49,905 nt of DNA from Deinococcales bacterium (GCA_031414595.1 JANNVX010000029.1:1-49905), one strand, 5' to 3'; numbered from the stretch's first letter, positions 1 to 49,905 are shown. Numbers and translations: made by a program. The notes: generated by a model from the letters alone, not told the origin.

Positions 1-102
1 TTCTTGAAAGTATGGAAGTAAGGCTTGGAATTCTTTTTTGGTTAGTCCAGTCAGGGCTAAGAAGCGAGTTTTATTCTTGACGAGTTTGTCGTAATGCAGC
101 AC
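1..102 (-). CDS. Transposase N-terminus (partial), IS5/ISL2-like HTH
   Basis: GTG at 102 gives MLHYDKLVKNKTRFLALTGLTKKEFQALLPYFQE; the 'F..LTGLT..EF..LL..F' pattern is typical of DDE_Tnp_4-associated N-termini. Confidence 0.65.
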   Translation of the reverse strand, partial: MLHYDKLVKNKTRFLALTGLTKKEFQALLPYFQE

Positions 103-135
103 TCGAATAGTTTATCCTAATTTCCGATAACGTCT
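1..135 (-). mobile_element. Left end of an IS5-family (ISL2-group-like) insertion sequence, truncated by the window edge
   Basis: Minus strand begins AGACGTTATCGGAAATTAGG at 135 (IR-like) and leads into a transposase-like N-terminus; the inositol monophosphatase frame starts abruptly at 136. Confidence 0.65.
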
Positions 136-261
136 ATTGAAGAAGCGGGTGGTCTGGTCAGTAATTTTGCTGGGCAAACCTATGCCTATAGCGACAAGAA
201 AATTGTCGCCAGCAACAAACATCTTCACCAAGCGATGATTGACACGATCAACCTGTCATGA
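136..261 (+). pseudogene. 3' fragment of inositol monophosphatase (SuhB-like), cut by the IS
   Basis: IEEAGGLVSNFAGQTYAYSDKKIVASNKHLHQAMIDTINLS* matches the IMPase C-terminal 'EAGG.V....G.......I.ASN..LH' pattern; no start codon, and IS sequence lies directly upstream. Confidence 0.7.
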
Positions 262-299
262 TTGACACGATCACTCAAAGTTCATGATTGACACGATCA
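235..299 (+). repeat. Three copies of the 16-bp repeat ATGATTGACACGATCA
   Basis: Exact copies at 235-250, 258-273 and 284-299, with 7- and 10-nt gaps. Confidence 0.9.
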
Positions 300-304
300 A
301 CGAA

Positions 305-731
305 TCAAAATAAATCAGCCCCAAGCATGACTGCTGGGCGTAAGCTGATTTGGCAAGATTTACCTGTAGCTGCTAAATCCTGCTGTCCCACAATTTGAAC
401 TGCTCCAATGCCCTGCCAGGTGTTGTTGGCTCGAGTTACGGCTGGCAACAAAATACAGTAGTAATACTCTTTTTGGCTTGCCACTGCAAAAATTGCTAAG
501 TCTGTGTCAATTCCTGTTTGTTCTCGAGTTGCGTATAACCCAAGTCCTACTCGGGTATCTGTGCCGACCGCAAAACCATAAGGAATGTTTTGTTCTCTAG
601 CCACCAGATTGACCGCCCAAGTACCAAGCTGGTCAAAAGTCACATCCCACGTTTGCCCTAAATTAAACACAGCTTGCCAAGGCAGCACTAAAAAACATCA
701 GCGTCCAAACCCAGAACCAATTTCACTTCAT
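305..731 (-). pseudogene. Secreted two-Cys beta-rich protein, apparently disrupted (intact ORF portion 305-688)
   Basis: ATG at 731 follows a TACCCT -10 box; that frame reads MK*NWFWVWTLMFFSAALA (signal-peptide-like) and shifts into AVFNLGQTWDVTF; the domain resembles the repeats in 20074-21723. Confidence 0.5.
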
Positions 732-895
732 GGTATTAGGGTATCACGAATTTTGTTTCTCGAGGAAAAAAACGTCATACCAACCCTTGATATTCTTGGC
801 ATATTTTACATTTTTTTCAAAGAAATCCATAATCAGACGTTGTCGAAAGTGTTGCAGCACTTTCTAATTTGATACGAAATCCTAAAACATGTTGC

Positions 896-1699
896 TTAAA
901 TTCCACGCGGACGATACAACCCAGTTCTGGTTTCTTCGATGTACTCCTCGAGTTGCGGCATCTGCAAAACCCGAGCCACCGCACATTCTGCTTGGTAGTC
1001 GTACAACACGCGAACAAAACTGAGTTCTAGTTGACTCGAGCCATGCAGCACCCCATAACTAGGCAGATTTGAGTCAAGCGGATTGCCAACCGAACCGACA
1101 TTAAAGACCATTCGTCCGCGCAAGTTAGGGTTCATTTCAGGAAATGAGCGCAAATGCCGCACTAAAACAGTGTGAATATCACCATAACCAACAGCAATCG
1201 GTAGGGGTGCATCCAAGCCAACAAATTCGGTGGCATCAAAAAGCCGATAAAAGTTTTCGAGTGGGTCATTTTCCCGCACCCGTGTCCAAACACCGTGGCT
1301 CGAGGCATGAACCAATCGCACCAAGCCAGATTTTCTAGGAATATCTAGGGCGTTGGGAAGCGATTTTAACCATTCGAGCCGTTCTAGTCCGACTTGAGTA
1401 CGTTGCCACTCGAGGGCTTGGGTCATGCTTGGCATTTCTGGCGGAGCGTTATTCATAATCGGACGAATCAGCAATTCATCCCAGTTGCCAAACAAACAAG
1501 GTATCTCGAGTTCTCGCAACCTGTCTAGCACCTCGGCTGGGCGCGGACCTTTACCCGCCACATCCCCCAGCATCACAATCTGTTGAATGCCTCGCTTAGA
1601 AATATCTGCCAGCACTGCTTCAAGGGCGGTTAAATTTGCATGGGTATCTGAAATAATCGCCAGAGGCTGAGATTCTGCAATGTCAAGGAGAACTGGCAC
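896..1699 (-). CDS. Calcineurin-like metallophosphoesterase
   Basis: Motifs SDTHAN, LGDVAG, GNWD, H, GDIH, NVGSVG. Confidence 0.9.
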   Translation of the reverse strand: MPVLLDIAESQPLAIISDTHANLTALEAVLADISKRGIQQIVMLGDVAGKGPRPAEVLDRLRELEIPCLFGNWDELLIRPIMNNAPPEMPSMTQALEWQRTQVGLERLEWLKSLPNALDIPRKSGLVRLVHASSHGVWTRVRENDPLENFYRLFDATEFVGLDAPLPIAVGYGDIHTVLVRHLRSFPEMNPNLRGRMVFNVGSVGNPLDSNLPSYGVLHGSSQLELSFVRVLYDYQAECAVARVLQMPQLEEYIEETRTGLYRPRGI

Positions 1700-1715
1700 A
1701 GCTTATTCTACAACG

Positions 1716-1790
1716 CTGGTAGTCACAGTTCTATCCTGACTCTGGTCGTCACAGTTCTATCCTGATTCTGGTCGTCACAGTTCTATCCTA
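1716..1790 (+). repeat. 26-bp tandem repeat, about 2.9 copies
   Basis: CTGGT(A/C)GTCACAGTTCTATCCTGA(C/T)T units start at 1716, 1742 and 1768. Confidence 0.9.
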
Positions 1791-2823
1791 CGACTTTAGC
1801 AAAAACCATACGTCCAAGTGCCGTTTGGGTGATGGTTTGAATCAAGACTTGGGCAATTCGACCCTTAAAAGCCAGTCCGTCTTCGACCACCACCATTGTG
1901 CCATCCTCGAGATAGCCTATCCCCTGCCCGGGTTGATTGCCCTCGCGCATAATTTGTAGATTGAGTTCGTCACCAGCCGCCAATTTTGGTTTTAAGGAAT
2001 CGGCGAGAACGTTTAAGGATAAGGTTTTGACATCTTGTAAACCTGCCACTCGAGCCAGACCAGTATCGTTGGTGACAATACTGGCATGAATTTCCAGCGC
2101 AGCCCGAATTAAACGTTCATCCACTTCGCCGCCAGTATCAGCAAATTCTCGAATCACCACTTCTAGGTTACGGACTGCTTTTAATTTCTCGAGTAAATCC
2201 AAACCGCGTCTGCCTTTGGCGCGTCGGTCTTTGTCGGTGGAATCGGCAAAATACTGTAATTCACGCAACACAAAACCCGGGACAATCAGCATTCCTTCAA
2301 GAAAACCAGCCCGTGCCACCTCTAAAACCCGTCCATCAATAATAACGTTTGTGTCTATCAGTTTTAACGAACCCAAGGTGCTTTTAATGGTTAAGGTTTT
2401 CGGGCTTCGTTCGGCAAAAGGTGTAAAAAAATGTTGGTTAATCACCGCGATGCTGACCAAAAACACCGCCAGCACCACGGTAATCCCAATTTGCCAAATC
2501 CAGTTGTAGCCCGGAATATTAGAAATCACACCATTTAAGAGAAGGCTTAGTATCAACGAAAAAACCAGTGCCACCGTTGCCGCCAAGACAGTTTGCGGTG
2601 GAGTATGCACCCATGCTTCGGCAATGCGTGCCACAATGCCACGCAACCAAAAACTAATACGACCTGTAAAAAGCGAAATCAGCAACGCCCCAAGCAAGGT
2701 AATATAGGCTTGATTGATGCTGTCTTGGACAAGTAGAGGAGCGGTACGCCAGCCGACAAAAGCACCGATAATAACCAGAGTCCCTCGGATAATAGCGCGA
2801 ATTAAATCAGGTTCAGGTTTCAT
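1783..2823 (-). CDS. Membrane PIN/TRAM domain protein (YacL-like)
   Basis: N-terminal TM helices, PIN motif IDTNVIIDGR, TRAM motif GQGIGYLEDGTMVVVE; downstream of radA, as in other bacteria. Confidence 0.92.
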   Translation of the reverse strand: MKPEPDLIRAIIRGTLVIIGAFVGWRTAPLLVQDSINQAYITLLGALLISLFTGRISFWLRGIVARIAEAWVHTPPQTVLAATVALVFSLILSLLLNGVISNIPGYNWIWQIGITVVLAVFLVSIAVINQHFFTPFAERSPKTLTIKSTLGSLKLIDTNVIIDGRVLEVARAGFLEGMLIVPGFVLRELQYFADSTDKDRRAKGRRGLDLLEKLKAVRNLEVVIREFADTGGEVDERLIRAALEIHASIVTNDTGLARVAGLQDVKTLSLNVLADSLKPKLAAGDELNLQIMREGNQPGQGIGYLEDGTMVVVEDGLAFKGRIAQVLIQTITQTALGRMVFAKVVG

Positions 2824-2835
2824 TTTACTCCCAAT

Positions 2836-4161
2836 TTACACTTTAGCGCGTTGTTGCCACATCATTTGTACCGCTTCGCGCACCATCGTAATGCTGCGGC
2901 TGCCATGCACACCCGGCGGAGCGATTAATCGTTCAATGCCAATTCGAGTCGCTTCGGCAGCACGGCGGGCGGGCTGGGAAACACTGCGAACCTCGCCAGC
3001 CAAGCCAACTTCGCCAAAAACCGCAATGCCCTCAGGAATTGGTTTCATCATTACCGCGCTGTAGACTGCTAAAGCAATGGCTAAATCGAGACCGGGGTCA
3101 ATCACTTTTAAGCCACCCGCTAAATTGACATAGATGTCCAGTCCACCAAGGCTTAGCTCTAAGCGGCGCTCGAGAACCGCCAGAACCACATCCACCCTTC
3201 TGGCATCTAAGCCAACTGCCACCCGCTTCGGGGCTGGATATGGGGTTTTTGCCGCCAAGGCTTGAACCTCGAGCAGCAATGGGCGTTGCCCATCCATGGT
3301 GGCAGCAATCACACTGCCCGGCGCACCGACTGGACGTTCGGCAAGGAACGCGGCAGACGGGTTATCCACTGCCACCAAACCAGCTTCCTGCATATCAAAA
3401 ACACCCAGTTCGCCAACATTGCCAAAACGGTTTTTAATCGAGCGCAGCATTCGGTAATTGCCAACACTCTCGAGCATCAACACTGCATCCACAATATGCT
3501 CCATCACTTTTGGTCCTGCCACCGAACCATCTTTGGTGACATGTCCGACCAAAACCATACTGCTGCCGGTTTCTTTAGCAGCGCGGGTCAGTTGGGCTGT
3601 AGCTTCACGCACTTGGGCAAGACCACCGGGCGAACCAGTCTCGCCAGCTTGAATGGTTTGGATTGAATCCACAATGCAAAGCCGTGGTTTTTCTGCCTCG
3701 AGAAGCGCAGAAATCCCTTCTGAAGTGATGTCGCGGGTCATTAGGATGTTTCCAGTTACACCAAGTCGGTCAGCCCGTAAGCGCACTTGCTCGAGCGATT
3801 CTTCGCCAGCCACATACAAAACAGATTCGCCAGCTTCGGCTAAATGATGTGCCACTTGTAATAAAAGCGTACTTTTACCAATCCCCGGTTCGCCACCAAG
3901 CAGCACCACTCCACCAGCCACCCAACCGCCACCCAAAACCCGATCCAATTCCGAAACACCACTCGAGACCCGAGGCTCAGATTGGGTTGCCACATCGCCA
4001 AGGCGCACCAAGGCGGCTCGAGGTAAAGCAAGGCGTTTAGCGGGGCTGTTAGAAATCTCTTCAAAACTATTCCAGGCGCTGCACGTTGGGCAACGCCCGA
4101 GGCTTTTTACAGCGGTGTAGCCACATGAACTGCATTTGAATTGGGTGGTGACTCGAGCCAT
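2836..4161 (-). CDS. radA: DNA repair protein RadA/Sms
   Basis: C4 zinc finger, Walker [15 protein letters not shown] motif, Lon-like C-terminus. Confidence 0.97.
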
Positions 4162-4229
4162 TGCACAATGTTACAAAACAAAAGTGAGCAAAGTACAAAA
4201 ACAATTTGGCAATGTAAACAGGTTGATAT

Positions 4230-4265
4230 TTGTGATTTAATTCACGATTATTATGTATTTGTGAA
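4230..4265. promoter_or_regulatory. Putative transcription-factor box (Rex/CRP-like TGTGA-N6-TCAC plus a TTGTGAA half site)
   Basis: TTGTGATTTAATTCACGA...TTGTGAA; a closely similar copy lies at 15472-15506. Confidence 0.45.
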
Positions 4266-4340
4266 TTTATTATTTCAAGATTTTTTATTAAATCAATCTA
4301 AGACTTCCTTAGAATCTGATTCAAGCTCGAGTCAAAAGAC

Positions 4341-4370
4341 TTGCAATTTTGGTACACCAAACGGTATAAC
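4341..4370 (+). promoter_or_regulatory. Sigma70-type promoter for the aroG leader
   Basis: TTGCAA-18nt-TATAAC, ending 7 nt before ATG 4378. Confidence 0.6.
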
Positions 4371-4377
4371 TTGGCTC

Positions 4378-4443
4378 ATGCGTTCACGTTCGCCGTTTTA
4401 TGCTTATTTTTTTACCCCAGACACGGCGGCTGAGGGGACGTAA
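4378..4443 (+). CDS. Phe/Tyr-rich attenuator leader peptide (21 aa)
   Basis: MRSRSPFYAYFFTPDTAAEGT*; FYAYFF cluster resembles PheL; followed by a terminator and then DAHP synthase. Confidence 0.85.
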   Translation: MRSRSPFYAYFFTPDTAAEGT

Positions 4444-4461
4444 ATCTGTTTACCAACCTAG

Positions 4462-4490
4462 AAAACCGCCGAGCTTCGGCGGTTTTTTTT
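4462..4490 (+). terminator. Attenuator terminator
   Basis: AAAACCGCCGA-GCT-TCGGCGGTTTT plus T-run; CCGCCG can alternatively pair with CGGCGG at 4424-4429. Confidence 0.85.
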
Positions 4491-4505
4491 GGTTTTAAGG
4501 AGTCT

Positions 4506-5576
4506 ATGCCACACAATACCGATGATGTCCGAATCAAAGCCATTCACGAAGTTTCTCCGCCGATGCACATCATGCGAGAATTTCCAATCTCAGAAAGCGC
4601 GGCTGCCACCGTTTTTGATTCGCGCCAAGCCTCTCACCGAATACTGCATGGCATGGATGACCGCCTTCTGGTGGTGGTTGGACCGTGTTCGATTCACGAC
4701 ACCAAGGCAGCCCTCGAGTACGCAGGTAAGTTGCTTACGCTAAAAAAGAAGCTACAAGCCGACCTTGAAATTGTGATGCGGGTTTATTTTGAAAAACCGC
4801 GTACCACAGTTGGTTGGAAAGGTTTAATCAACGACCCCTTGCTCGATGGCAGCTTTGAAATTAACCAAGGCTTACGGGTGGCAAGGGACTTGCTGCTCGA
4901 GATTAACGAATTAGGAATTCCAGCCGCAACCGAATACTTGGATACAATTTCGCCGCAGTATATAGCGGATTTAATCGCATGGGGAGCAATCGGAGCGCGT
5001 ACCACCGAAAGCCAAATTCATCGTGAGCTTGCCAGTGGCTTAAGTTGCCCAGTTGGATTTAAGAACGGCACGGATGGTAACATTAAAATTGCCATAGATG
5101 CGATTAAATCTTCTTCACAGCCGCATAACTTCTTGTCTGTCACCAAAGCTGGACACAGCGCCATTGTTTCTACCGGTGGCAACGAGGATTGTCATGTGAT
5201 TTTGCGCGGTGGCAAAACCCCTAATTATGATGCTGACCATGTAGAAGCGGCTTGTACAGAAATCAGTAAATCAGGCTTGGCTGCCCGAATCATGATTGAT
5301 TGTTCACACGGCAACTCGAGTAAAAAACACGAAAATCAAATTCCAGTGGCTGCCGATGTTGGTGTACAAATTGCTGGCGGGGACACTAGAATTGTCGGCG
5401 TGATGCTCGAGAGCCACTTAAAAGCTGGTCGGCAGGATTTAATCCCTGGTACGCCTCTCGAGTACGGCGTTTCGATTACCGATGCCTGTATTGCTTGGGA
5501 AGAAACGGTTTTGGTTCTCGAGAATTTAGCTTCGGCAGTGCGAATGCGGCGGGTGCAGCAAGTCAGCGCTAAGTAA
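4506..5576 (+). CDS. aroG: DAHP synthase, class I-alpha
   Basis: GPCSIHD, RVYFEKPRTTVGWKG, GAIGARTTESQIHR, DCSHGNS, YGVSITDAC; RBS AAGGAG. Confidence 0.96.
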   Translation: MPHNTDDVRIKAIHEVSPPMHIMREFPISESAAATVFDSRQASHRILHGMDDRLLVVVGPCSIHDTKAALEYAGKLLTLKKKLQADLEIVMRVYFEKPRTTVGWKGLINDPLLDGSFEINQGLRVARDLLLEINELGIPAATEYLDTISPQYIADLIAWGAIGARTTESQIHRELASGLSCPVGFKNGTDGNIKIAIDAIKSSSQPHNFLSVTKAGHSAIVSTGGNEDCHVILRGGKTPNYDADHVEAACTEISKSGLAARIMIDCSHGNSSKKHENQIPVAADVGVQIAGGDTRIVGVMLESHLKAGRQDLIPGTPLEYGVSITDACIAWEETVLVLENLASAVRMRRVQQVSAK

Positions 5577-38985: not shown

Positions 38986-39348
38986 TTACTCTCCCAACCC
39001 GTTCTTGGTCATGATTCGCAATGCTGCTCGAGATTGTTCTAAAGCATCACCCTCGAGCTTCCCGTAATACCCACGCACCCGCGAAGCGTCAACACTGGTG
39101 ATATGGTCAAAAAGAATAGTGCAGGCTTCGCTAAGGTTTGCTTCTCCTGCAACAAGTTGTACGCGAAGTACCCCTTGGTGTTTTGTGGTCGTGGTAATTG
39201 GGACGACCACAAGCATTGGGGATTCGAGTTTTTGGTGTGAACTTGGATCATCAATCAGCAATGCAGGACGTTCCCCCGTTTGTTCATGTCCTTTGGGTTT
39301 GCGTTCAGGGAAGGCAACGCGAATCACTTGTCCAAAAACACTATTCAT
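38986..39348 (-). CDS. MazF/PemK-family toxin
   Basis: G.V..V.FP....GHEQ.G.RPAL, VVPITT, D.I.SVD..R. Confidence 0.9.
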   Translation of the reverse strand: MNSVFGQVIRVAFPERKPKGHEQTGERPALLIDDPSSHQKLESPMLVVVPITTTTKHQGVLRVQLVAGEANLSEACTILFDHITSVDASRVRGYYGKLEGDALEQSRAALRIMTKNGLGE

Positions 39349-39764: not shown

Positions 39765-39893
39765 AAGAGGTGCAAGTATAGTTTGACTGTTTATACTTTG
39801 CATAGTTTAATTTTAGTTATACTATATAAGCACTGAAGGCGGCATTTCTGCGGCAAACACTAAAAACAGCGCTTTCGGCATAAACTAAAAAAT

Positions 39894-39925
39894 AAGAATC
39901 CCCCGCTAATTAGCGGGGGATTCTT
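39894..39925. terminator. Hairpin, likely the original tRNA-Ala terminator
   Basis: AAGAATCCCCCGCTAATTAGCGGGGGATTCTT perfect palindrome directly beyond the att copy. Confidence 0.8.
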
Positions 39926-39970
39926 GGTGGAGATGAGGGGATTTGAACCCCTGACCTCTTGAGTGCGATT
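39925..39970 (-). repeat. att site (duplicated 3' 46 bp of tRNA-Ala)
   Basis: TGGTGGAGATGAGGGGATTTGAACCCCTGACCTCTTGAGTGCGATT, identical to 47522-47567. Confidence 0.95.
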
Positions 39971-40097
39971 TCGTAATTAACATATTTACTGATTTAACTT
40001 GACTTCACTTCTCTAACTGTATTGTTTGTCAAATACGCGCTTATTTTGCTCGAGTTGTTTATTCTTGTCACTGCATTTATATCCAAGTCACTTGACC

Positions 40098-40118
40098 CGT
40101 TCCGCATCTGTTCCGCAT
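40098..40118 (+). repeat. Putative integrase arm-type site (left)
   Basis: CGTTCCGCATCTGTTCCGCAT, identical at 47429-47449. Confidence 0.75.
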
Positions 40119-40201
40119 ATTCTTAACCTCAAGAAATGACGTTAAGAAAAGAAAAGGTATATGAAGTTGTGTAAATAAACAAGAAATGATAAACTTTTTA
40201 T

Positions 40202-40699
40202 ATGAGCGTTCCACGATTTGCCAACAATAGCCTTGGTCTGGCAATGGCATGTGCAGTTGTGGAAATTCGTAACACACTTTGTCGTCCCTTATGCACCAAA
40301 AATACGAATGACTCCTTAACTCTTGCTATAACTTGCGCGGTTATGGAGCATCAAACCTTTCGATTACCTCGAGACAAGGGATACGAAGCCTTAGTGAAAA
40401 AATTAAAGTCTAAAAGTTTGTCCATGTCTTTCGTTTGGCAAAAACTCCGACGAAACATGGGGGCAAATGGCGTGACGTGGGGAGAAGCTAATGTAGCTCA
40501 GTTCAATTGCGCTTTGGACGCATTGCTTTCCGAAATACTAAAAGCAATGCGTTTAGCTATTCACCTAAATTTTTTGCAGTTATTAAATTTTCATCTTCTG
40601 AAATTGAATAATGATTCTCGAGTAATTGAAAAACTACTGCACCCCCCACCGCTCGAGTATTACCCACAAATACAAACCACTTGCGCCCCCAACGTCTGA
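40202..40699 (+). CDS. Hypothetical protein (element cargo)
   Basis: 165-codon ORF, AT-rich, ends ...HPPPLEYYPQIQTTCAPNV. Confidence 0.55.
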   Translation: MSVPRFANNSLGLAMACAVVEIRNTLCRPLCTKNTNDSLTLAITCAVMEHQTFRLPRDKGYEALVKKLKSKSLSMSFVWQKLRRNMGANGVTWGEANVAQFNCALDALLSEILKAMRLAIHLNFLQLLNFHLLKLNNDSRVIEKLLHPPPLEYYPQIQTTCAPNV

Positions 40700-40717
40700 G
40701 AACACGGCTTTAGTCCT

Positions 40718-41020
40718 GTGTTCTCACCTCGAGCATTAACCGCTCGAGCGTCCCGTTTGGGGTGGTCTTTTATAAATAATTCTTTGAATCCGCAAGCAAT
40801 CACGGTCAAATCCTTTTTTGGTGTTTCAGACGTTGCCCAACGTTGGGAAGTACATCAAAACTTTGTTTACAACCTCATCAAAAGTGGTGAGCTTCCATGC
40901 CTGAAAATTGGCAACCCCGGAAGCAAACGCCCCGTTATCCGTATCCCTCTTGACTCACTCGAGGCATGGGAAGCGGCTCAACTTTCCAACAGGGTTAAAA
41001 ATGCACAACTTCGCCAATGA
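40718..41020 (+). CDS. Excisionase-like HTH protein
   Basis: 'FF.V.DVA.RW.V....VY.LI.SGELP..KIG......IRIP...LEAW'; true start uncertain, probably downstream. Confidence 0.8.
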   Translation: MFSPRALTARASRLGWSFINNSLNPQAITVKSFFGVSDVAQRWEVHQNFVYNLIKSGELPCLKIGNPGSKRPVIRIPLDSLEAWEAAQLSNRVKNAQLRQ

Positions 41021-41759
41021 CACCCTGACCCGAGCTATTTTAGAAGCTGACCTACCCGCAATTGTTGCCCAATACTTCCCTGATGCTCGAGCAGTACCAA
41101 ACAAAGCAGGGCGGGTCATTCCAGTTTGGCTTAAGACTTCTCGAGACTTTGACGCAAGCCTAAAACGCTATCCAGGTGGAACATGGCGTTTGCATTGCTT
41201 TGTGACAAACCAAGATTTTAATGCTTTTGGTTTCTTGGTGAGCATCGTCGGCATGACCAGAGCCGAAGCCGCTAAACACCTAATTCAACTGGCAGGACTC
41301 GAGCAATGCCACACAGTCCCTCGAGGTAAACCACAAGCGACGATTGAACGTAAACCAATACCAGATATTCCAAATGATTTAACCGAATGGATCAACATTT
41401 GGAATAATTTTGGTGGTGTAAAACTTAAACTCGAGGGCGCAGAGTACGAAGGACTAACAGCTTTATCAAACTGGATAGGCGATGCGCTCAGACCGTACAA
41501 GGCACAACTTGAACGAATCGCGGCGGGTGTCAGTCTCGAACATTGCATTGACGCTTTTATGGGTGCTACACCTCGAGTTTGCCCCTGTGGGAAACGATGG
41601 ACTACCAAAATGCAAATGCACAACCACGACAGCAACCAAAAGCTCTTTCTAGGCACAGCTTTTGGTTGTGAACCATGCGGCGAAATTTGGTCAGCATCCG
41701 AACTCGAGGCAGCCCGAATTTTACAAAAAGCATTGCAAATCCTCGAGGTGGTGATATGA
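41001..41759 (+). CDS. Protein with DnaG-like (CHC2-type, degenerate) zinc-finger N-terminus and C-terminal Cys ribbon
   Basis: 'W..HCF.......AF.FL....GM...EAAK.L' plus CPCG...CEPC; no Toprim motif seen. Confidence 0.6.
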   Translation: MHNFANDTLTRAILEADLPAIVAQYFPDARAVPNKAGRVIPVWLKTSRDFDASLKRYPGGTWRLHCFVTNQDFNAFGFLVSIVGMTRAEAAKHLIQLAGLEQCHTVPRGKPQATIERKPIPDIPNDLTEWINIWNNFGGVKLKLEGAEYEGLTALSNWIGDALRPYKAQLERIAAGVSLEHCIDAFMGATPRVCPCGKRWTTKMQMHNHDSNQKLFLGTAFGCEPCGEIWSASELEAARILQKALQILEVVI

Positions 41760-43408
41760 CTCGAGCCGAAGCCTTGCAAGTGGTGCGTACTGCAAACCCA
41801 GCAGGATTAGCGGCGGTACTCGAGCTAAACCAAGCCAAGCAGTACGACAACCTCGAGAATACCGAATTACTTGAGGACTCCGAACCGTGGCAAGCACGGC
41901 AACCGATACCAGCTTGTCAAAAAGTCTTTAGCTTACCCCTCGAGATGTTGCCAGACTGCTTACAAGACTGGTTGCATGATACGGCACGGTTAGCGTGTTC
42001 TCCGCTCGAGATGGTGGCTTCAAATGCTTTGTGTGCCTTATCAGGTGTGATTGGTGCAAGCGTCACGGTGCAAGCTCGAGCAGGGTTTTATGTCACACCG
42101 AACATTTGGGGCGGTGCGGTTGCGTCCTCTGGCAGCATGAAAACAAAGTTATTGAATGATGCAATTGCACCCCTGAGACACCTCGAGAAACAGGCAGCCC
42201 ACGACTTAGAAACCCTAAACGAAGATGCAGAACTCGAATTAAGCCAAGCCAAGAAACAACTTGATTTACTCGAGAAGCGATACACCGAAAAGAAAGCCCC
42301 TCGAGGTGAGGTTATACCAACCCTTGAGGCTGTGAAAGCAGCTCGTCAAGAAGTCCGTAGGCTCGAGAATGCCAAACCCACCGAACGGACTTACACCACA
42401 ACCAATTGCACCCATGAAGCACTCGGAATGCTGTTACAAGATAATCAAAAGGGGATGACTGTCATCCGTGACGAATTAGCCCCTTTTGTTGCCAGTATGA
42501 ACCGTGATGACATGGCAGAGGCTCGAGGATTCTTCAATGCCGCTTGGGATGGCAGTACGTCCTACACTTATCATCGGGTAGGACGCGGTAAGGTCAGGCT
42601 TGAACGGGTTTGTGTTGCCATTTGTGGCATGATTCAACCTAAGCTGTTAGATGAACTAATCGCCCGAATGCTTGCCGACCCGATGCAGAATGACGGTTTT
42701 TTACAACGCTTTCAGGTTTTGGTTTATCCGGATAATTACCTAAAATGGATACCGCCCGAACAGCAAACACCCGCCAATAAGTACGCACTCGAGCGGGTCA
42801 TCAAAGTAGCAATACGCTTAAACAACCTCGAGCAGAACGGTACAGATGGTAGTCTCGAGCCTCGCTTATTAAAGTTCTCGAGCGAAGCACAACCCGAATT
42901 TAACCAATGGCATGACACGCTCGAGCGGCGAATAAGACCAGGTGGCGACCTTGCAACTGATAGCGCGTTCAAGTCTTGGTACGCCAAAACAAAAAGCCTG
43001 TGTGTCTCACTTGCAGCTATCTTTCATCTTTGCGACCTTGCAGACCAAGACCGTGCTTGGGGTGACGACCTCGAGCCAATAAGCCTAGATGCTTTGCTGA
43101 TGGCGCTTGATTGGTCGGATTACCTCGAGCAACACGCCAAGAAGATTTACGCCCTCGAGCTAAACCCAGACCAGACAGCAGCCCATACAGTGGCAAAGCT
43201 GATTGAAGATAAGAAAATCAGGGATGGCAGCACCTTACGCGATGTAAAACAAACAAATCGTAACATCTCGAGCATTATTGACCGTGGCGTATATACGCTC
43301 GAGCAATTGGGGTGGTTACGAATAGAGGAAACTCGAGCCACTGGCAAACTTGACGGACGGGCAAAAGAAGTTATTCGGTTACACCCAGACTTAAAAGGTG
43401 GTGAGTGA
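41756..43408 (+). CDS. DUF3987/YfjI-like P-loop replication ATPase
   Basis: 'P....LP..L', PNIWG.AVA.SG.MKT (Walker A-like), T.EAL...L, RDE (Walker B), R..RG, G.IQP, DGFLQRF. Confidence 0.85.
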   Translation: MTRAEALQVVRTANPAGLAAVLELNQAKQYDNLENTELLEDSEPWQARQPIPACQKVFSLPLEMLPDCLQDWLHDTARLACSPLEMVASNALCALSGVIGASVTVQARAGFYVTPNIWGGAVASSGSMKTKLLNDAIAPLRHLEKQAAHDLETLNEDAELELSQAKKQLDLLEKRYTEKKAPRGEVIPTLEAVKAARQEVRRLENAKPTERTYTTTNCTHEALGMLLQDNQKGMTVIRDELAPFVASMNRDDMAEARGFFNAAWDGSTSYTYHRVGRGKVRLERVCVAICGMIQPKLLDELIARMLADPMQNDGFLQRFQVLVYPDNYLKWIPPEQQTPANKYALERVIKVAIRLNNLEQNGTDGSLEPRLLKFSSEAQPEFNQWHDTLERRIRPGGDLATDSAFKSWYAKTKSLCVSLAAIFHLCDLADQDRAWGDDLEPISLDALLMALDWSDYLEQHAKKIYALELNPDQTAAHTVAKLIEDKKIRDGSTLRDVKQTNRNISSIIDRGVYTLEQLGWLRIEETRATGKLDGRAKEVIRLHPDLKGGE

Positions 43409-43814
43409 AGTGGACACGTACCAGCCAAGACGATTACAGAAAAAAACTGAAAAACCCCTAGAGTCGTCAACTCAAAAGACTCAAAAGCCCGAAAATACCC
43501 CTTTTGAGTCTTTTGAGTTAGCCCGAGAGGGGGTATTTACAAATTTTTATTCTGATGCAAGTCTCGAGCAGCCAAGCCCAAAACCAGCCGAACAGCCCAA
43601 ACTACCCCTTTATCTCACCCCTGAGTTTCGCCCTAAACCTTTGCCCTTACACCTTGAGAAGTTCGCTCGAGCAGCCAGAACGGGCAAACTCCCCGTACCT
43701 CTTGCTGACCTTGTGGTGAGTCATGTGGGATGGTGGTTCGTAACTTCCGATGCTCGAGAACTCGAAGCCCTCGAGGTATTGCACAAGAAGCACTACGGCA
43801 CGGTACAAGCGTGA
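43398..43814 (+). CDS. Hypothetical protein overlapping iteron-like repeats
   Basis: Overlaps both neighbours, consistent with translational coupling. Confidence 0.5.
   Translation: MVSEVDTYQPRRLQKKTEKPLESSTQKTQKPENTPFESFELAREGVFTNFYSDASLEQPSPKPAEQPKLPLYLTPEFRPKPLPLHLEKFARAARTGKLPVPLADLVVSHVGWWFVTSDARELEALEVLHKKHYGTVQA
43470..43538. repeat. Iteron-like inverted repeats, candidate replication origin
   Basis: ACTCAAAAGACTCAAAAG (43470-43487) and its exact reverse complement (43501-43518); extra AAATACCCC/GGGGTATTT pair. Confidence 0.7.
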
Positions 43815-44476
43815 AATACGCATTGATTAAAACAACCGAAATACTGCCACCGTTACCTATTCAACGTTCGTTCACTACACAAGCCATGAAGCATTATCAA
43901 GTCCTACAAAGCATTTTGATTAAACCACTCACCCCAAGCGATGCCCGAGAATTAAACCTCGGGCTGGGGATTCTCGAGGAATACCAGTACCAAATTATCA
44001 AAGGCGAGCGGGTGTTTGCTGATGCGGTAAGCGCGGGAATCTCAAGTATTCCCTGTGTGATTATTCCTGAGTCCACTACTCCGACCCAGTGCGCCGAAAT
44101 GCGTTTACTGCTGACCCACTGTCAGAACAAAAACATTGTTGCTGATTCCTTAGCGGTGCGTGGTTTGGTCGCTCGAGATGGAAGGGAACAAACCAAAGCT
44201 CGTTTTAAGGCTTTAGGATTCCCAAATTCGGTTTTCTTGCTTCTCGAGCGACCATCCAAATTACCAAAAGTAATTTTTGAAGCTGCACTAGAGGGGCGTA
44301 TCAAGCCGAGTGTGTTTAAGACAATTGCTAAACTCACAACCACTCAACAAACCAAAGTCTGTCAACTTCTCGCCTTTGGGCATGATTCTTTGTGTCTCAA
44401 AGACGTGCAGGAGTTGCAAAAAATCCAGAAACAAGAAGCCGCCGGACATATTTTCTCGAATCTCAAAAGGAACTAA
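43811..44476 (+). CDS. ParB-like protein (degenerate)
   Basis: YQIIKGERV...A...G...IPCVII resembles the ParB N-domain; GTGA overlap with the upstream gene. Confidence 0.55.
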   Translation: MKYALIKTTEILPPLPIQRSFTTQAMKHYQVLQSILIKPLTPSDARELNLGLGILEEYQYQIIKGERVFADAVSAGISSIPCVIIPESTTPTQCAEMRLLLTHCQNKNIVADSLAVRGLVARDGREQTKARFKALGFPNSVFLLLERPSKLPKVIFEAALEGRIKPSVFKTIAKLTTTQQTKVCQLLAFGHDSLCLKDVQELQKIQKQEAAGHIFSNLKRN

Positions 44477-44478
44477 AT

Positions 44479-45081
44479 ATGCAAAATCTAATCCAAGCTG
44501 TAACCGAAGCACAAACCCAACTCGAGCAGACACAAACCCAACTCGAGCAAATACAAACCAACCTAGACCGCGTTCAAAGCGACCTTATGCAAGCCCAACA
44601 GTCTCGAGAAGAAGCACAACAGGCGTACACCAACGGCGGCGACTTGGCAGAATTAAGCCATGCGACGATTACACTTCATGCTCTGGAAAGAGCAAAGCAG
44701 AATCTCGAGCAAAACCAGCAAAACCAGAACCAAGCCTTAAACTCCGCACAGCAGAGCCTCAAAAAAGCACAAAAGGAACTCGAGGATGAAGAGCTTAAGC
44801 AGGCTTTCCGAGATGCTGAACGCGAATTTAAGGCACACATTGATTCATCAATTCCTCAACTCGAGGCACTGCTAAAAGAGGGCGCTATCCTTTACACGCA
44901 GTTATATCAAGCACAGCAAAAGGCGAATGCTAAGGGCATTACTTTATATATACACCCTCTGTTCAGGTATGAAGATGTTCCGACCACAAAACGCTATGGG
45001 ACTGCCCTAGCCAATTTTCAATACTGCCGTGACCTTGAGAAGCAGAGCGAACGGAATGCAGTATTGAAAAAACCTCATTGA
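44479..45081 (+). CDS. Coiled-coil hypothetical protein
   Basis: RBS AAGGA; heptad QTQLEQT repeats encoded by 21-bp duplications. Confidence 0.7.
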   Translation: MQNLIQAVTEAQTQLEQTQTQLEQIQTNLDRVQSDLMQAQQSREEAQQAYTNGGDLAELSHATITLHALERAKQNLEQNQQNQNQALNSAQQSLKKAQKELEDEELKQAFRDAEREFKAHIDSSIPQLEALLKEGAILYTQLYQAQQKANAKGITLYIHPLFRYEDVPTTKRYGTALANFQYCRDLEKQSERNAVLKKPH

Positions 45082-45116
45082 ATGTTTTGAACCTCAAGGA
45101 CGCTTTCAAAATATAC

Positions 45117-45154
45117 AAAACCCCCCTCGAGATTAAAAGACTCGAGGGGGGTTT
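45117..45154. terminator. Bidirectional terminator between the element's convergent operons
   Basis: AAACCCCCCTCGAG-ATTAAAAGA-CTCGAGGGGGGTTT. Confidence 0.8.
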
Positions 45155-45164
45155 CAGGGGTCAT

Positions 45165-45449
45165 TCAAAGCAGTTGAGAAAGGTTAAAAGTATATGGCTC
45201 GAGGGTCTGACATCCCCCTTTGATTGCAGTATGGTTCAATGCGTCTTTGATGGCTTTTGTTTCAAGATGATTGCTTACCGAAAACAGCAAAACCGTTTTT
45301 GTATCCTCAGCTTGTTCTTGCTCGAGAATACCCACAAACTTAGTATTGGTGTCTTGGGCAGCTTGTAATCCATCAAATGAGTTTTCAGGGCGTAATTGAT
45401 GGCTAGGGGCAACGGGAACAGCGATCAGAAAACGAGGACTTGGATTCAT
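45165..45449 (-). CDS. Hypothetical protein
   Basis: ATGA overlap with the upstream gene; third gene of the leftward operon. Confidence 0.6.
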   Translation of the reverse strand: MNPSPRFLIAVPVAPSHQLRPENSFDGLQAAQDTNTKFVGILEQEQAEDTKTVLLFSVSNHLETKAIKDALNHTAIKGGCQTLEPYTFNLSQLL

Positions 45450-45640
45450 GCTACACATCCTTTGGAGGCTTTTTTAGCCAAGAGAGAGGCGAGGAACGAA
45501 GTAAGCGGTAATTTGGCTTTGATTGAATCAGACTCGAGAAGAACAAACCAGTACGCCCCATGTTTTTCAAGTCTGGTACTGAAATGCTCACCATCTCGAG
45601 CCATGCCCGAACAGGTGCGAGTAATAGAAGGGGGCTTCAT
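45446..45640 (-). CDS. Hypothetical protein (64 aa)
   Basis: ATGA overlaps at both ends. Confidence 0.6.
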   Translation of the reverse strand: MKPPSITRTCSGMARDGEHFSTRLEKHGAYWFVLLESDSIKAKLPLTSFLASLLAKKASKGCVA

Positions 45641-45840
45641 GCCCCCACCGAATCACGATACAGATTGACTTCTTTCTCGAGGATAGAACGGGCTTTAGTG
45701 AGTGTAGAAAGGGCTTCACTAATGGACTCGAGCATGGTGCTTATGGTGCTTGTTTCTAGGGTTTCTGATTCTTGGTCAAAGGCTTTGATGTTTAGGTACT
45801 CGAGGGCTTGGACTGCATTTTGAAGGGTGATAGACTGCAT
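45637..45840 (-). CDS. Hypothetical protein (67 aa)
   Basis: RBS AAGGAG; first gene divergent from Xre. Confidence 0.7.
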   Translation of the reverse strand: MQSITLQNAVQALEYLNIKAFDQESETLETSTISTMLESISEALSTLTKARSILEKEVNLYRDSVGA

Positions 45841-45911
45841 GGGACTCCTTACAATTTGGGGATTCTCGAGAACGCCTTACTTTGAGAGGTGGTGCGTTCT
45901 TGAGTGCTTAT

Positions 45912-45940
45912 ATATTACCTTTTTATAGGGAATATGTCAA
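45912..45940 (-). promoter_or_regulatory. Leftward promoter of the element's regulatory switch
   Basis: Minus strand TTGACA-17nt-TAATAT; inverted TATATTACC/GGTAATATA operator-like pair at 45911 and 45965. Confidence 0.7.
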
Positions 45941-46007
45941 CATTAGATGGAATCCAAGTTATATGGTAATATACCAACTAAGAGCAGAATGCTCGAGAAT
46001 GGAGGAA

Positions 46008-46240
46008 TGATTGTGAAATGGAAAGTAAAAGAGTTCTTAGACTCAGTTGGTAAAACCCCTTATGCACTTTGGAAAGCATCAGGACTCTCAAGGAATCAAA
46101 CCTATGCCATTTGTAATGGTGAGCAAGATGGATTGCGTTTTGATGGGCTTTCAAAACTGATTCAGGGACTTGAAAAATTGTCAGGATTAACGGTAACACC
46201 TAACGATGTTCTTGAGGTGGTGCGTGATGGCACGACCTAA
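46008..46240 (+). CDS. Xre-family repressor
   Basis: 'W.VKEFL...G.TPYAL....GLS....Y.I..G...G.RFD.L..L..GLE.L.G..VT.NDVLEV'; RBS GGAGG; start may be GTG 46014. Confidence 0.85.
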
Positions 46241-47420
46241 GAATCCAGATAAGAAAAGAAGCAATGGCGATGGTGGTGTTTGGCAACTCGAAACAGGGCG
46301 TTGGCGTTGGGAAATAGTCTTAGGGTATGTCACCAAACCAAACGGTACACAGTCACGCAAAACCAAGAGCGGCACAGCCAAGAACGAAACCGAAGCCAAG
46401 AAAGCCCTAACCTTGGCTCGAGCCGATAAAGAACGCGGCTTACTGGCAACTCCTGACCGTGCCACAGTGACCGAATACTTAAAGAACTGGCTCGAGGGAC
46501 GCACAGCCAGACTTTCCAAAAATACTGCTGTGAGTTATCAAGGTTTAATCAAACGACACATTGACCCAAACATTGGTTCTAAACGACTGCAAGCCCTCAA
46601 GCCGCTTGACCTTCGCAACTTGTATACGGTTCTGCTCGAGAAGGGCTTATCTGGGCGTTCTGTGAGGTATGTTCACAGTCTGCTTTACAGTGCTTTCAAA
46701 GAAGCGGTTAAGCTCGAGATTACTTACCGAAATGTTGCCGAAGCAGTCACACCCGAAATACCCGCCGTGAATCGCAATGCCAAAGCAAGCCAAGCATGGA
46801 CAGCAAGCGAAGCGGCGCAGTTCTTAGCCGTGGCTCGAGGTGACAGCCTTTACGCCATGTTTTACATCATGCTTACCCTTGGGCTTCGTCGTGGTGAGGC
46901 TTGTGGGCTTCGCTGGCAAGATATTGACCTCGAGCGGCGACACCTACGCATCAAACAAACCATTGTCACAATTGACGGTAAACCAGTAGCAAGCGCACCC
47001 AAGACCAAAGGCAGCGCCCGACCCTTGGGAATTCCGCCTGAATTATTCGAGGTTCTGCGCTTACATCGTGCTATGCAGGAACAAATTCACCTCGAGAATG
47101 GCGCAATACCCCAAATTGATTATGTGTTTACAACAAAGAACGGCACAGCCTTACATCCTGACAACGTAAACCGAAGCCTCGAGCGATTGTGTAAAGTTGC
47201 AGAAGTTCGTCAGGTACGTGTCCATGACTTACGCCACACTTACGCATCCTTAGCAAGACGGGCGGGTGTATCGCTCGAGATGGTATCCGAGAAGTTAGGA
47301 CACGCCCGAGCGTCCTTTACGGGTGATGTGTATGTTCATACCTTCGATGACCAACACGAGGCAGCTACCTTAAACCTATCCGAGTTACTGGCAAGCCGAC
47401 CACGCCCCGCAATAGCTTAA
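46227..47420 (+). CDS. Tyrosine recombinase/integrase
   Basis: RSNGDG, GLRRGE..GLRW.DID, PKT, HDLRHTYAS, LGH, VYVH. Confidence 0.96.
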   Translation: MARPKNPDKKRSNGDGGVWQLETGRWRWEIVLGYVTKPNGTQSRKTKSGTAKNETEAKKALTLARADKERGLLATPDRATVTEYLKNWLEGRTARLSKNTAVSYQGLIKRHIDPNIGSKRLQALKPLDLRNLYTVLLEKGLSGRSVRYVHSLLYSAFKEAVKLEITYRNVAEAVTPEIPAVNRNAKASQAWTASEAAQFLAVARGDSLYAMFYIMLTLGLRRGEACGLRWQDIDLERRHLRIKQTIVTIDGKPVASAPKTKGSARPLGIPPELFEVLRLHRAMQEQIHLENGAIPQIDYVFTTKNGTALHPDNVNRSLERLCKVAEVRQVRVHDLRHTYASLARRAGVSLEMVSEKLGHARASFTGDVYVHTFDDQHEAATLNLSELLASRPRPAIA

Positions 47421-47428
47421 AAATAGGA

Positions 47429-47449
47429 CGTTCCGCATCTGTTCCGCAT
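47429..47449 (+). repeat. Putative integrase arm-type site (right)
   Basis: Identical to 40098-40118. Confidence 0.75.
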
Positions 47450-47491
47450 CTTGGGTACTTTTAAGGCGCAAACAAATAAAGCAAGAAAACG

Positions 47492-47520
47492 AAAAACCCT
47501 GTGATAAACAGGGTTTTTTT
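47492..47520. terminator. Element-supplied terminator next to the tRNA 3' end
   Basis: AAAAACCCTGT-GATAA-ACAGGGTTTTT. Confidence 0.8.
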
Positions 47521-47521
47521 A

Positions 47522-47597
47522 TGGTGGAGATGAGGGGATTTGAACCCCTGACCTCTTGAGTGCGATTCAAGCGCGCTCCCAACTGCGCCACATCCCC
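47522..47597 (-). tRNA. tRNA-Ala(CGC)
   Basis: GGGGATGTGGCGCAGTTGGGAGCGCGCTTGAAT-CGC-ACTCAAGAGGTCAGGGGTTCAAATCCCCTCATCTCCACCA, 76 nt, G3:U70. Confidence 0.96.
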
Positions 47598-48467: not shown

Positions 48468-48470
48468 CAT

Positions 48471-48694
48471 CATGAGCCAGTATCAACGCATTCTCGAGAC
48501 ATGGCAGAAGTTTTGATTTGCGCGAACCGCAAACAGAACCCAAATACGTGGCTCTGCTCGAGTGTACACAACAATTGACCGATGAACACAGCGTAGAAAG
48601 CCAACCAATAAAAACACTTTTTTGGTTGGCGTGCGAATACTTGCGGCGTTGGGAAGTGCTGCACGACCCGTGGGCAAACCAGCCAGTGGGATAA
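48471..48694 (+). pseudogene. Frameshifted, truncated HigA-like antitoxin N-terminus
   Basis: MSQYQRILETWQKF then +1 frame DLREPQTEPKYVALLE...LTDEH...LFWLACEYLRRWEVLHDPW; no HTH follows. Confidence 0.45.
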
Positions 48695-48707
48695 GCCAAA
48701 GCTCGAG
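48649..48707 (+). repeat. 59-bp imperfect direct repeat, copy 1
   Basis: 53/59 identical to 49486-49544. Confidence 0.9.
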
Positions 48708-48851
48708 AGAAGTTTGAAAGACAACAAAGGCGTGGGCGAGAAGCTCGAGTGGACTTTGTAAGCATGAACGAGATACACCCTATGCAAGCGTGTACAGAGT
48801 CATTGATTGGTCTTCTGAACATCTCACTTTTTGCTGTAGTACCTTAAGACT

Positions 48852-49460
48852 ATGGCATTTAGTGACTATAAGGCTATTTCCCAAGTTCAAACAGACTTTG
48901 GTATTGTTTACCTCGAGCAGGATTTCCTCGACCCAAAAGCCATACCATTAACACCTTTTTTTCTCGAGGAATTTTTGTTTACCAGAGAAAACATAGATGT
49001 GTTCACCTCCGAGGCTGCCCGTACCGATTTGGTAATCACACCTTTGCTGCTCGAGGTTTACAAGTATTATCATCAAAAAACATCCTTCTGGATTCAAAAA
49101 TCAATTACTTTTACAGAACAACTTCAGAGTACACCTGATTATATGATCGCTACCAAATCTGCACTTGGAAAAAGCGTCCTCGAGACACCATTACTTTTAG
49201 TGGTAGAAGCTAAGAAAAACGACTTTGAACAAGGTTGGGCGCAGTGTTTGGCTGAACTGATTGCAGCTCAAGGACTGAACAAACAAACCCAAAAAACTGT
49301 GTATGGCATTGTCACTGACGGCGAGCTTTGGAAATTTGGAAAACTGTTTGAAAAGCAGTTTCAACTGAACACAACACCTTATACAATTGGGCAACTCGAG
49401 GAATTGTTTGGGGCATTGCATCAGATTTTTCAATTGGCACTATTGCCAGAGTTAATCTAA
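48852..49460 (+). CDS. PD-(D/E)xK restriction-endonuclease-fold protein (HsdR N-terminal-like)
   Basis: SEAAR...I.P.L, PDY, VVEAKK.DF..GW.QCLAEL.AAQ, YGIVTDG..W.FG. Confidence 0.75.
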   Translation: MAFSDYKAISQVQTDFGIVYLEQDFLDPKAIPLTPFFLEEFLFTRENIDVFTSEAARTDLVITPLLLEVYKYYHQKTSFWIQKSITFTEQLQSTPDYMIATKSALGKSVLETPLLLVVEAKKNDFEQGWAQCLAELIAAQGLNKQTQKTVYGIVTDGELWKFGKLFEKQFQLNTTPYTIGQLEELFGALHQIFQLALLPELI

Positions 49461-49485
49461 TCAATTTGTTCGCTCGAGCCGTAAA

Positions 49486-49544
49486 TTGGGAAGTGCTGCA
49501 CGACCCTTGGGCAAGCCAAGCAGTGGCATAAGCAAAAGCTCGAG
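49486..49544 (+). repeat. 59-bp imperfect direct repeat, copy 2
   Basis: Matches 48649-48707. Confidence 0.9.
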
Positions 49545-49784
49545 GATAGCCTATGTGACACTTTATTAATTAGAGTAACGTGTATAATTTGCTCATGTAT
49601 CAAGAACATAATTTTAGAATTTTTGTTTTCTTTTTCTTAATTACATCTTTTCCTGTTTTCGCTCAAACTGAACCATCAGAACATCCTATTGTTACTTTTT
49701 GTAAAGACGCTGTTAAGCAAGGTCCGATTAGTATCCCATTCCTCCTAATTATTACAGCTATGTTATTCAATAGTCTGGAATGTT

Positions 49785-49904
49785 TTACGCAGTCTTAACT
49801 CCCAGATTAAGCGCGTCCTCGAGCAACACAATGTATTTCTCGAAGCTCAATTCCAAAGGCAACAAACGAATAATTCGTTCTGCAAACAACTCGTTATACG
49901 CCCG
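49785..49904 (-). CDS. C-terminal end of an unidentified gene (partial)
   Basis: Open frame from the window edge: RAYNELFAERIIRLLPLELSFEKYIVLLEDALNLGVKTA*. Confidence 0.45.
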   Translation of the reverse strand, partial: RAYNELFAERIIRLLPLELSFEKYIVLLEDALNLGVKTA

Positions 49905-49905
49905 T

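Follow-up and report, generated by a model that had tools for sequence, protein, structure and literature searches.

The subject of this analysis is the six-base palindrome CTCGAG in a stretch of DNA from a Deinococcales bacterium (assembly GCA_031414595.1, here named G000), the stretch, referred to below as the window, being the whole of contig C29 (JANNVX010000029.1, 49,905 bases). It is very probable that CTCGAG represents a genuine highly iterated palindrome (HIP), comparable to the cyanobacterial HIP1 and maintained by a positive force. This force acts on the DNA itself, and not on proteins or RNAs, and holds CTCGAG at approximately five copies per kb throughout the lineage, in genes and between them, in resident mobile elements and in CRISPR repeats, by forming new copies and, above all, by keeping existing ones. 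In the window, where the GC content runs from 44 to 50% along the length, CTCGAG occurs 280 times (5.6/kb), as compared to 6.51 +/- 2.52 copies, with a maximum of 14, in the 100 dinucleotide-preserving shuffles which served as the chance model. An initial annotation of the window had counted by hand 22 copies in positions 1-5000 and 50 in positions 40001-45000, against a chance rate of about one per 5 kb; both counts proved to be exact, and the computed chance rate of 0.65-1.1 per 5 kb agrees with that estimate.

The excess is a property of the whole genome and not of the window, because all contigs of the G000 assembly (4.49 Mb in 120 contigs, 94% complete, 47.2% GC) carry the motif, at densities ranging from 2.3 to 8.6/kb. 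The genome contains 23,235 copies (5.18/kb, or about one per 190 bases) versus 972 expected from mononucleotide and 534 from dinucleotide composition, this being an excess of 24- and 44-fold, respectively, and above the genome-wide excess of at least approximately 15-fold that characterizes a HIP-type short palindrome. CTCGAG is the commonest hexamer of G000, being three times as frequent as the next word; the runner-up hexamers (approximately 7,000 copies) are overlapping shifts of CTCGAG itself, and the best unrelated word, a run of A's, is present in 5,616 copies.

For comparison, three sets of genomes were used: a family set of 19 genomes from five genera (G000 and 18 others), a sister-family set of 22 genomes from four families, and a further even sample of 150 genomes from the wider phylum. 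As is the case for HIP-type words, the trait belongs to the whole lineage: the 19 family genomes, across all five genera, carry 4.3-6.8 CTCGAG/kb, and GAGCTC is almost absent from them. The GC content of the family ranges from 47 to 60%, and the density of CTCGAG has a set-point that is independent of base composition, since a 100-kb sample of G013 (a genome assembled as a single 5.1-Mb contig), at 60% GC, still contains 4.5 copies per kb. Sister-family genomes carry 0.03-2.9/kb, and none of the 150 other genomes sampled from the phylum exceeds 3.4/kb. Three genera (g13, g18 and g19) of the sister family f5, G090 and G117 being among the f5 genomes concerned, are intermediate, with 2-3.4/kb, and in small samples from two of these genera CTCGAG is the top hexamer, at 2.8-3.9 times the level found after synonymous shuffling, and GAGCTC is scarce. 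Across the order the trait thus forms a gradient, with the family of G000 at its extreme.

That the excess follows from a preference for CTC-GAG at the level of codons, di-codons or dipeptides, or else is an artefact of assembly or library preparation, is extremely improbable. An artefact absent from related genomes, which the initial annotation had named as one way in which the enrichment could prove spurious, is ruled out by the presence of the excess in 19 independent assemblies, one of which is a single 5.1-Mb contig, and by sites that align between these assemblies. The coding explanation was assessed with 3,244 non-overlapping open reading frames (ORFs) of at least 150 aa, covering 83% of G000, as a stand-in for genes. 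These ORFs hold 19,163 copies, distributed over frames 0, 1 and 2 as 11,423, 3,712 and 4,028, and it speaks for codon preference that 60% of the coding sites read as in-frame Leu-Glu, that this dipeptide is over-represented outside the family too (observed/expected ratio, O/E, of 1.40-1.63 in small samples of four non-family groups), and that GC-rich relatives reach 2-3 CTCGAG/kb partly through codon choice. Part of the Leu-Glu excess is thus ordinary, considering its occurrence in groups outside the family. In the ORFs of G000, Leu-Glu is the most over-represented dipeptide (O/E 2.23; 2.00 in the G013 sample), and 60% of Leu-Glu pairs are spelled CTC-GAG, while elsewhere CTC accounts for 8% of Leu codons and GAG for 20% of Glu codons.

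Against the coding explanation stands, in the first place, the density outside long ORFs, which at 5.35/kb equals that within them (5.14/kb), in accordance with the earlier statement that the motif occurs in all three frames and between genes. Intergenic densities are 4.6, 5.3 and 6.3/kb between divergent, tandem and convergent genes, respectively, and the profile across gene starts and stops is flat at approximately 5.3/kb, apart from the first 30 nt of genes, where the density drops to 3.9, and the surroundings of stop codons, where it climbs to 6.4-6.8/kb. Furthermore, within-gene synonymous shuffling leaves 1,849 of the 19,163 ORF sites and shuffling of codon order 848, and CTC-GAG codon pairs number 11,423 where codon frequencies predict 434. 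A di-codon null model, under which the enrichment would have had to vanish if it were due to codon context, preserves frame-0 sites by construction and is therefore informative for frames 1 and 2 only; in these frames the first-order codon chain predicts 2,144 and 1,897 sites, so that the observed numbers persist at 1.7- and 2.1-fold above the model. The mirror word GAGCTC, which uses the same two codons in reverse order (Glu-Leu), has only six copies in G000. Codon or dipeptide bias is accordingly ruled out as the source by the non-coding density, the synonymous shuffle and the di-codon model.

Individual sites are conserved above the surrounding sequence, as are those of HIP-type words. Approximately 30 kb of the window was aligned to four relatives, two close ones (93.5% and 91.0% identity to the window) and two more distant ones (83.7% and 76.7%). 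CTCGAG is intact at 125 of 138 sites in G005 (0.91, versus 0.71 for other hexamers), at 135 of 149 in G001 (0.91 versus 0.62), at 51 of 64 in G004 (0.80 versus 0.37) and at 97 of 147 in G003 (0.66 versus 0.27). The retention excess (Fisher p from 7e-8 to 9e-23) is seen in each reading frame and in non-coding DNA, and existing sites are kept two to three times better than other hexamers. CTCGAG coincides with alignment gaps at 1 of 139, 1 of 150, 0 of 64 and 2 of 149 sites, no more often than other hexamers do, which rules out an origin by 6-bp insertions; new sites therefore arise by substitution, including synonymous changes and amino-acid changes towards Leu-Glu. In the comparison with G003, 73 sites are common, 38 occur only in the G000/G001 pair and 67 only in G003, and many of the alternatives at turned-over sites are other spellings of Leu-Glu. 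The subclade of G000 carries 4.8-5.2 CTCGAG/kb, compared with 5.9-6.4 in other members of the genus.

The word itself is exact. Bases flanking CTCGAG are near background and the palindrome stops at six bases, by which a longer hidden motif is ruled out. Among the 33,474 TCGA in G000, both the C and the G flank are present in 23,235, one flank in 5,263 and neither in 4,976, the two flanks being far more correlated than independent half-sites would give, and it is as an exact whole that the hexamer is favoured. One-step neighbours of CTCGAG that differ by a transition have an O/E of 1.06-1.26, the three kinds being equally common, and those that differ by a transversion an O/E of 0.16-0.70. Spacing is Poisson-like (coefficient of variation 0.99; variance/mean 1.01 in 1-kb bins), which rules out a regular arrangement, though gaps below 50 nt are somewhat too few and there is a tail of long gaps. 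Tandem copies are absent from G000, since these would create GAGCTC. Pairs with exactly one base between the two copies occur 101 times in unrelated contexts, 73 of them inside long ORFs, and pair spacings of 8-14 occur 17-54 times each. Palindromes in general are avoided in this genome: 34 of the 64 palindromic hexamers are depleted more than 10-fold (O/E <0.1), as compared to 2.8% among hexamers at large, GGCC occurs 152 times, and GATC has an O/E of 0.14.

Within the window, the motif is densest in an integrative element next to a tRNA gene. The features concerned are as follows.

1..49905, no strand: field of 280 CTCGAG sites (motif count).
39925..39970, no strand: attL, a 46-nt perfect direct repeat (family D3, 100% identity) of the tRNA-Ala 3' end (repeat search).
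39971..47521, + strand: integrative island of 7,551 bp with 70 CTCGAG, 9.27/kb (repeat search and motif count).
40718..41020, + strand: excisionase-like HTH_17 protein of the island.
40728..40748, no strand: two CTCGAG 15 nt apart with 7-nt inverted arms.
41675..43408, + strand: DUF3987/phage-type helicase with 24 CTCGAG (13.8/kb), 15 of which read Leu-Glu in frame.
45120..45150, no strand: terminator-like inverted repeat with CTCGAG in each 11-nt arm, followed by TTT.
46206..47420, + strand: tyrosine integrase of the island with 9 CTCGAG (7.4/kb).
47522..47597, - strand: tRNA-Ala (CGC), the first 46 nt of which on the + strand (47522-47567) represent attR.

The element is a genuine integrative island, which also encodes ORFs without assigned function. 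Both hairpins that had been pointed out in it are real; in the one at 45120-45150, a C-run plus CTCGAG faces CTCGAG plus a G-run. Outside the island the window contains 210 CTCGAG in 42,233 bp (4.97/kb), the island thus being approximately 1.9 times denser. The earlier description of the motif as densest in the element stands for the window; genome-wide, the island only ties for the top, given that 7,371 G000 windows of island size contain on average 39.2 copies (sd 8.4) and that only three loci, namely a CRISPR array, contig C99 and the island, reach 70. No match to the island was found beside the same tRNA gene in G001, G003, G004 or G006, a related integrase adjoins this gene in G007, and no clean empty site was obtained, the DNA of relatives beyond the tRNA not being syntenic with the left flank in the window. 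Loci with relatives of the island helicase in six other family genomes carry 5.1-9.1 CTCGAG/kb, the two closest being clearly above their hosts; among viral contigs no relatives of this helicase were found. A MazF/PemK toxin and its HTH partner lie directly to the left of attL (38986-39803).

A second island at a tRNA-Ala gene (TGC; G000:C9:12240-22383, corresponding to L208:3241-13384) has 7.7 CTCGAG/kb, versus 3.2 in its flank, and encodes an integrase, a MazF-like toxin, an 884-aa ORF without Pfam family and other unassigned ORFs before reaching the contig end. G000 has three CRISPR arrays (C11:14150-16150, C82:70750-71700 and C101:40-1640) with two related 35-nt repeats, both of which contain CTCGAG. 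The densest region of the genome, C11:14-16 kb, was therefore dropped as evidence on mobile DNA, its density following trivially from the repeat of the array. Among the spacers of the C11 array, 8 of 26 contain CTCGAG, approximately 0.2 sites being expected in these 950 bp; some CRISPR targets of the lineage, like its own integrative islands, match or exceed the density of the host. One CTCGAG-bearing spacer searched in viral and metagenome contigs gave no match, 59 spacers compared to G000 and the retrieved loci gave only chance matches of 14-29 nt, and no Rfam family was found in the CTCGAG-dense or -sparse regions examined. Scanning IMG/VR for clusters of three CTCGAG, which yields a biased sample, returned at least 120 stretches, at least 15 of which have at least 4 sites/kb among the matches listed; in five of the eight viral stretches examined from these listed matches no hexamer is commoner than CTCGAG, which there occurs in all frames. 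The IMG/VR stretches L313, L326, L292, L298 and L257 have 4.4-5.9 CTCGAG/kb, with no tie to the present lineage as host found; L313 lacks GAGCTC and L326 almost lacks GGCC.

The reverse is seen in a polysaccharide or O-antigen-type cluster (G000:C46:26000-44000, L032) encoding Wzy, sugar transferases, epimerases and an aminotransferase, which contains 3-7 CTCGAG per 5 kb, versus a mean of 26, and was probably imported recently. Scarcity in recently imported DNA, as known for uptake sequences, is thus seen in this single island. The initial annotation had considered a dense element to be the opposite of what foreign DNA usually shows, and this holds when an island of the lineage's own mobilome is set against the sparse C46 cluster.

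Machinery that could write, read or repair the motif was sought by profile searches, with 14 genomes as controls. Methylation as the mechanism, which had been put forward at the outset, found no support. Neither Vsr (PF03852) nor an XhoI-type nuclease (PF04555) was found in G000, the latter model having matched none of the 14 control genomes and thus having no positive control. G000 is unusually rich in restriction-modification genes, with approximately 30 DNA methyltransferase matches from five Pfam families; no methyltransferase conserved across the 19 family genomes was found in a search of these five families, which concerned incomplete assemblies and in which non-orthologues may share a specificity. 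The C5 class (PF00145) was not found in G010, a genome with 21,883 CTCGAG, so that the pairing of Vsr with a C5 methylase, on which Dcm/Vsr-like repair depends, was found in neither G000 nor G010. Searches of the complete genome G013 yielded neither the N6_N4 class nor TaqI_C domains, the latter occurring in 6 of the 19 genomes. G013 has one C5 enzyme, three of HsdM type, one 1,111-aa enzyme and a weak Dam-class match; its only C5 methyltransferase (G013:C1:4981152-4985177, L048) is located in a 46%-GC stretch of this 60%-GC genome, beside an HD-CE protein, and looks like an imported defence islet.

Several candidates for a cognate enzyme were rejected. The two TaqI_C enzymes of G000 are present in only 2 of 18 and 3 of 18 relatives, and the single Dam-class enzyme is sporadic and adjoins a MutH/Sau3AI-like nuclease. 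Identity between the gamma-class enzymes of G000 and their counterparts in four other genera amounts to 25-58%, and no single orthologue occurs in all of them. A search of the Protein Data Bank (PDB) with the C89 enzyme returned only CamA- and BseCI-like adenine methylases and is uninformative on specificity. Motif density failed as a pointer to a long-resident methyltransferase, as nearly all of the 24 genes checked carry CTCGAG at host-like density. In a haloarchaeon, 5-methylcytosine at CTCGAG is described (PMC8112702).

Considering these results together, we tentatively favour, as one possible explanation, that CTCGAG is a HIP1-like uptake or recombination tag which has spread by molecular drive and weak selection. 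A dimeric factor would recognize the palindrome, and DNA bearing it would be taken up, recombined or kept more efficiently, so that the tag would spread by molecular drive plus weak selection; segments travelling within the lineage would gain from carrying more copies, and small islands without transfer genes of their own would gain most. A tag of benefit to the segment is favoured because of the excess in circulating DNA, because natural transformation is up to 100-fold higher with methylated HIP1, according to bioRxiv 10.1101/2024.09.10.611283, and because HIP1 is proposed to be an uptake signal in PMC13756078. The DNA uptake sequences (DUS) of Neisseria and uptake signal sequences (USS) of Pasteurellaceae are similar to CTCGAG in being lineage-specific words which are present in genes and spacers, shape peptides and are scarce in imported DNA; spread by molecular drive is expected for all of them, and competence genes are present in the CTCGAG family. 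No receptor was identified for CTCGAG, unlike for DUS and USS.

A number of points weigh against such a tag. Known uptake sequences of the DUS/USS type are 9-12 nt long, non-palindromic and present about once per kb, unlike CTCGAG. ComEC and DprA are each found in 18 of the 19 family genomes and also in 10-11 of the 14 controls; being near-universal they say little, and their presence permits natural transformation and proves nothing. No protein that recognizes CTCGAG was identified. The four distant helicase-relative loci have about the CTCGAG density of their hosts, and contig C99 (17 kb) is, at 8.6/kb, as dense as the island, so that a high density is not confined to mobile DNA. C99 mostly encodes ordinary catabolic functions (LUD, aldolase/SDR, DeoR, aldehyde and acyl-CoA dehydrogenases), in addition to PT-HINT proteins and a PDDEXK transposase. 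In the two arrays other than C11 the motif is present in just 1 of 32 spacers, so that some invaders of the lineage are motif-rich and others not. On the youngest branches, as judged from a small sample (G000 versus G005, polarized by G001), there were 19 losses and 5 gains, two of the latter needing two simultaneous changes. This excess of losses fits the purging of slightly harmful losses and equally fits slow decay in the subclade, and conservation alone does not separate selection from repair biased towards CTCGAG.

Such repair is the basis of a somewhat unlikely alternative, in which a methyltransferase marks CTCGAG or TCGA and methylation-linked biased mismatch repair, as in Elhai's model for HIP1 (described in PMC4390886) or in a Dcm/Vsr-like very-short-patch system, favours the motif without benefit to the cell. 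It would account for the behaviour of the exact hexamer as a unit with correlated TCGA flanks, for the depletion of transversion neighbours next to transition neighbours near expectation, for 16 of the 19 recent losses being C>T or G>A, and for a uniform, Poisson-like density such as a per-site mutational equilibrium would give, and it would convert islands, phage and whatever other DNA replicates in these cells. The required components are, however, what the searches did not find, namely Vsr in the 94% complete G000 and, within the five Pfam families searched, a methyltransferase common to the family. TaqI_C occurs in 6 of 19 genomes, and the enzymes of G013, leaving aside a C5 enzyme whose island looks foreign, are limited to the HsdM type and the 1,111-aa one. 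Equally common transition neighbours, moreover, carry no signature of a single methylated cytosine, and passive conversion predicts islands at or below the density of the host, not 1.9-fold above it. Dcm/Vsr at CCWGG-type words of enterobacteria shares a repair bias that raises the methylase site and lowers its near-neighbours, with an enrichment of a few-fold at most; it needs both Vsr, not found in G000, and a C5 methylase, which is not universal in the family.

Selection on chromosome structure, with CTCGAG as the site of an abundant nucleoid or chromosome-organizing protein, is distinctly unlikely. Equal density in coding and non-coding DNA, one set-point at 47% and 60% GC and the strong positional conservation are in line with it, yet it offers no reason for islands at twice the host density or for the motif in CRISPR-targeted invaders, and spacing is random and not regular. 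It is very unlikely that the motif is a self-marker read by a defence system, whereby motif-dense (modified) DNA would be tolerated and motif-lacking DNA attacked, and resident elements and phages would mimic or exceed the density of the host. The richness in restriction-modification genes with some 30 methyltransferase matches, the more than 10-fold avoidance of 34 of the 64 palindromic hexamers, the motif-rich islands and spacer targets, and the rank of CTCGAG as top hexamer in some IMG/VR viral contigs among the matches listed would suit such a marker; a defence system that measures motif density is not known to us, however, the searches yielded neither a conserved writer nor a conserved reader, and imported islands with few sites persist.

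The likeness to HIP1, which the initial annotation had proposed, holds wherever it could be examined: CTCGAG is hyper-abundant, present in all frames and between genes, lineage-wide and conserved between species. HIP1 (GCGATCGC) and the alternate cyanobacterial HIPs are, like CTCGAG, short palindromes over-represented tens of times. For HIP1, conservation of sites between species is argued, and a reading in terms of nucleoid or chromosome structure proposed, in PMC5861425, and a Chi-like role is one of two mechanisms suggested in bioRxiv 10.1101/2024.09.10.611283. Both words are found inside CRISPR repeats, as is reported for HIP1 in Synechocystis (PMC6604393). HIP1 differs in being an octamer of cyanobacteria, CTCGAG being a hexamer in another phylum, and in density, HIP sites occurring roughly once per kb according to Elhai (PMC4390886), compared to approximately 5/kb for CTCGAG. 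It furthermore has two dedicated methyltransferases, as stated in PMC4390886 and PMC13756078, whereas no conserved orphan methyltransferase was found for CTCGAG. Unlike HIP1, CTCGAG reaches a higher density in integrative islands of the lineage itself than it does in the chromosome, and while a periodicity of 10-90 kb has been reported for HIP1, only short-range spacing, which is Poisson-like, was accessible for CTCGAG in an assembly of 120 contigs. Chi is likewise a frequent short word, one that stimulates recombination, but it is asymmetric and strand-oriented, whereas CTCGAG is palindromic and approximately 25 times above chance. A full-text literature search, supplementary files excepted, found no report of CTCGAG hyper-abundance in the phylum.

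Some further features of the window were also noted. Positions 1-140 and 49766-49905 are the ends of two different multi-copy repeats, and 40-mers from these ends of C29 have 22 and 8 copies in G000, none of them more than 200 nt away from a contig end; both repeats probably represent insertion sequences at which the assembly was interrupted. A tmRNA gene whose tag peptide comprises 17 residues is located at 21861-22230, and a RES toxin with an Xre/MbcA-type antitoxin at 26990-27822.

CTCGAG is a second, independent HIP1-like case, in another phylum. The question posed by HIP1 has been open for thirty years and studied in one phylum only, and it becomes easier to test with a different word which is approximately five times denser, has a set-point over 47-60% GC, exists in weaker versions in sister genera and is carried by the lineage's own mobile elements. 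Any explanation has from now on to do without the cyanobacterial methyltransferases and to cover mobile DNA that over-carries the tag. In practical terms, CTCGAG is a very strong marker, by which contigs, islands and phages can be assigned to the lineage in metagenomes and recent imports can be flagged. It is unlikely, though of wide consequence, that CTCGAG serves a hitherto undescribed system by which members of this family recognize the DNA of their kin for exchange (uptake or recombination), a system that arose independently of HIP1, operates without a dedicated conserved methyltransferase, and is exploited by small integrase-helicase islands and some phages which load up to twice the host density; if this were true, iterated palindromes would be a general, convergent label by which bacterial lineages mark their own gene pools.

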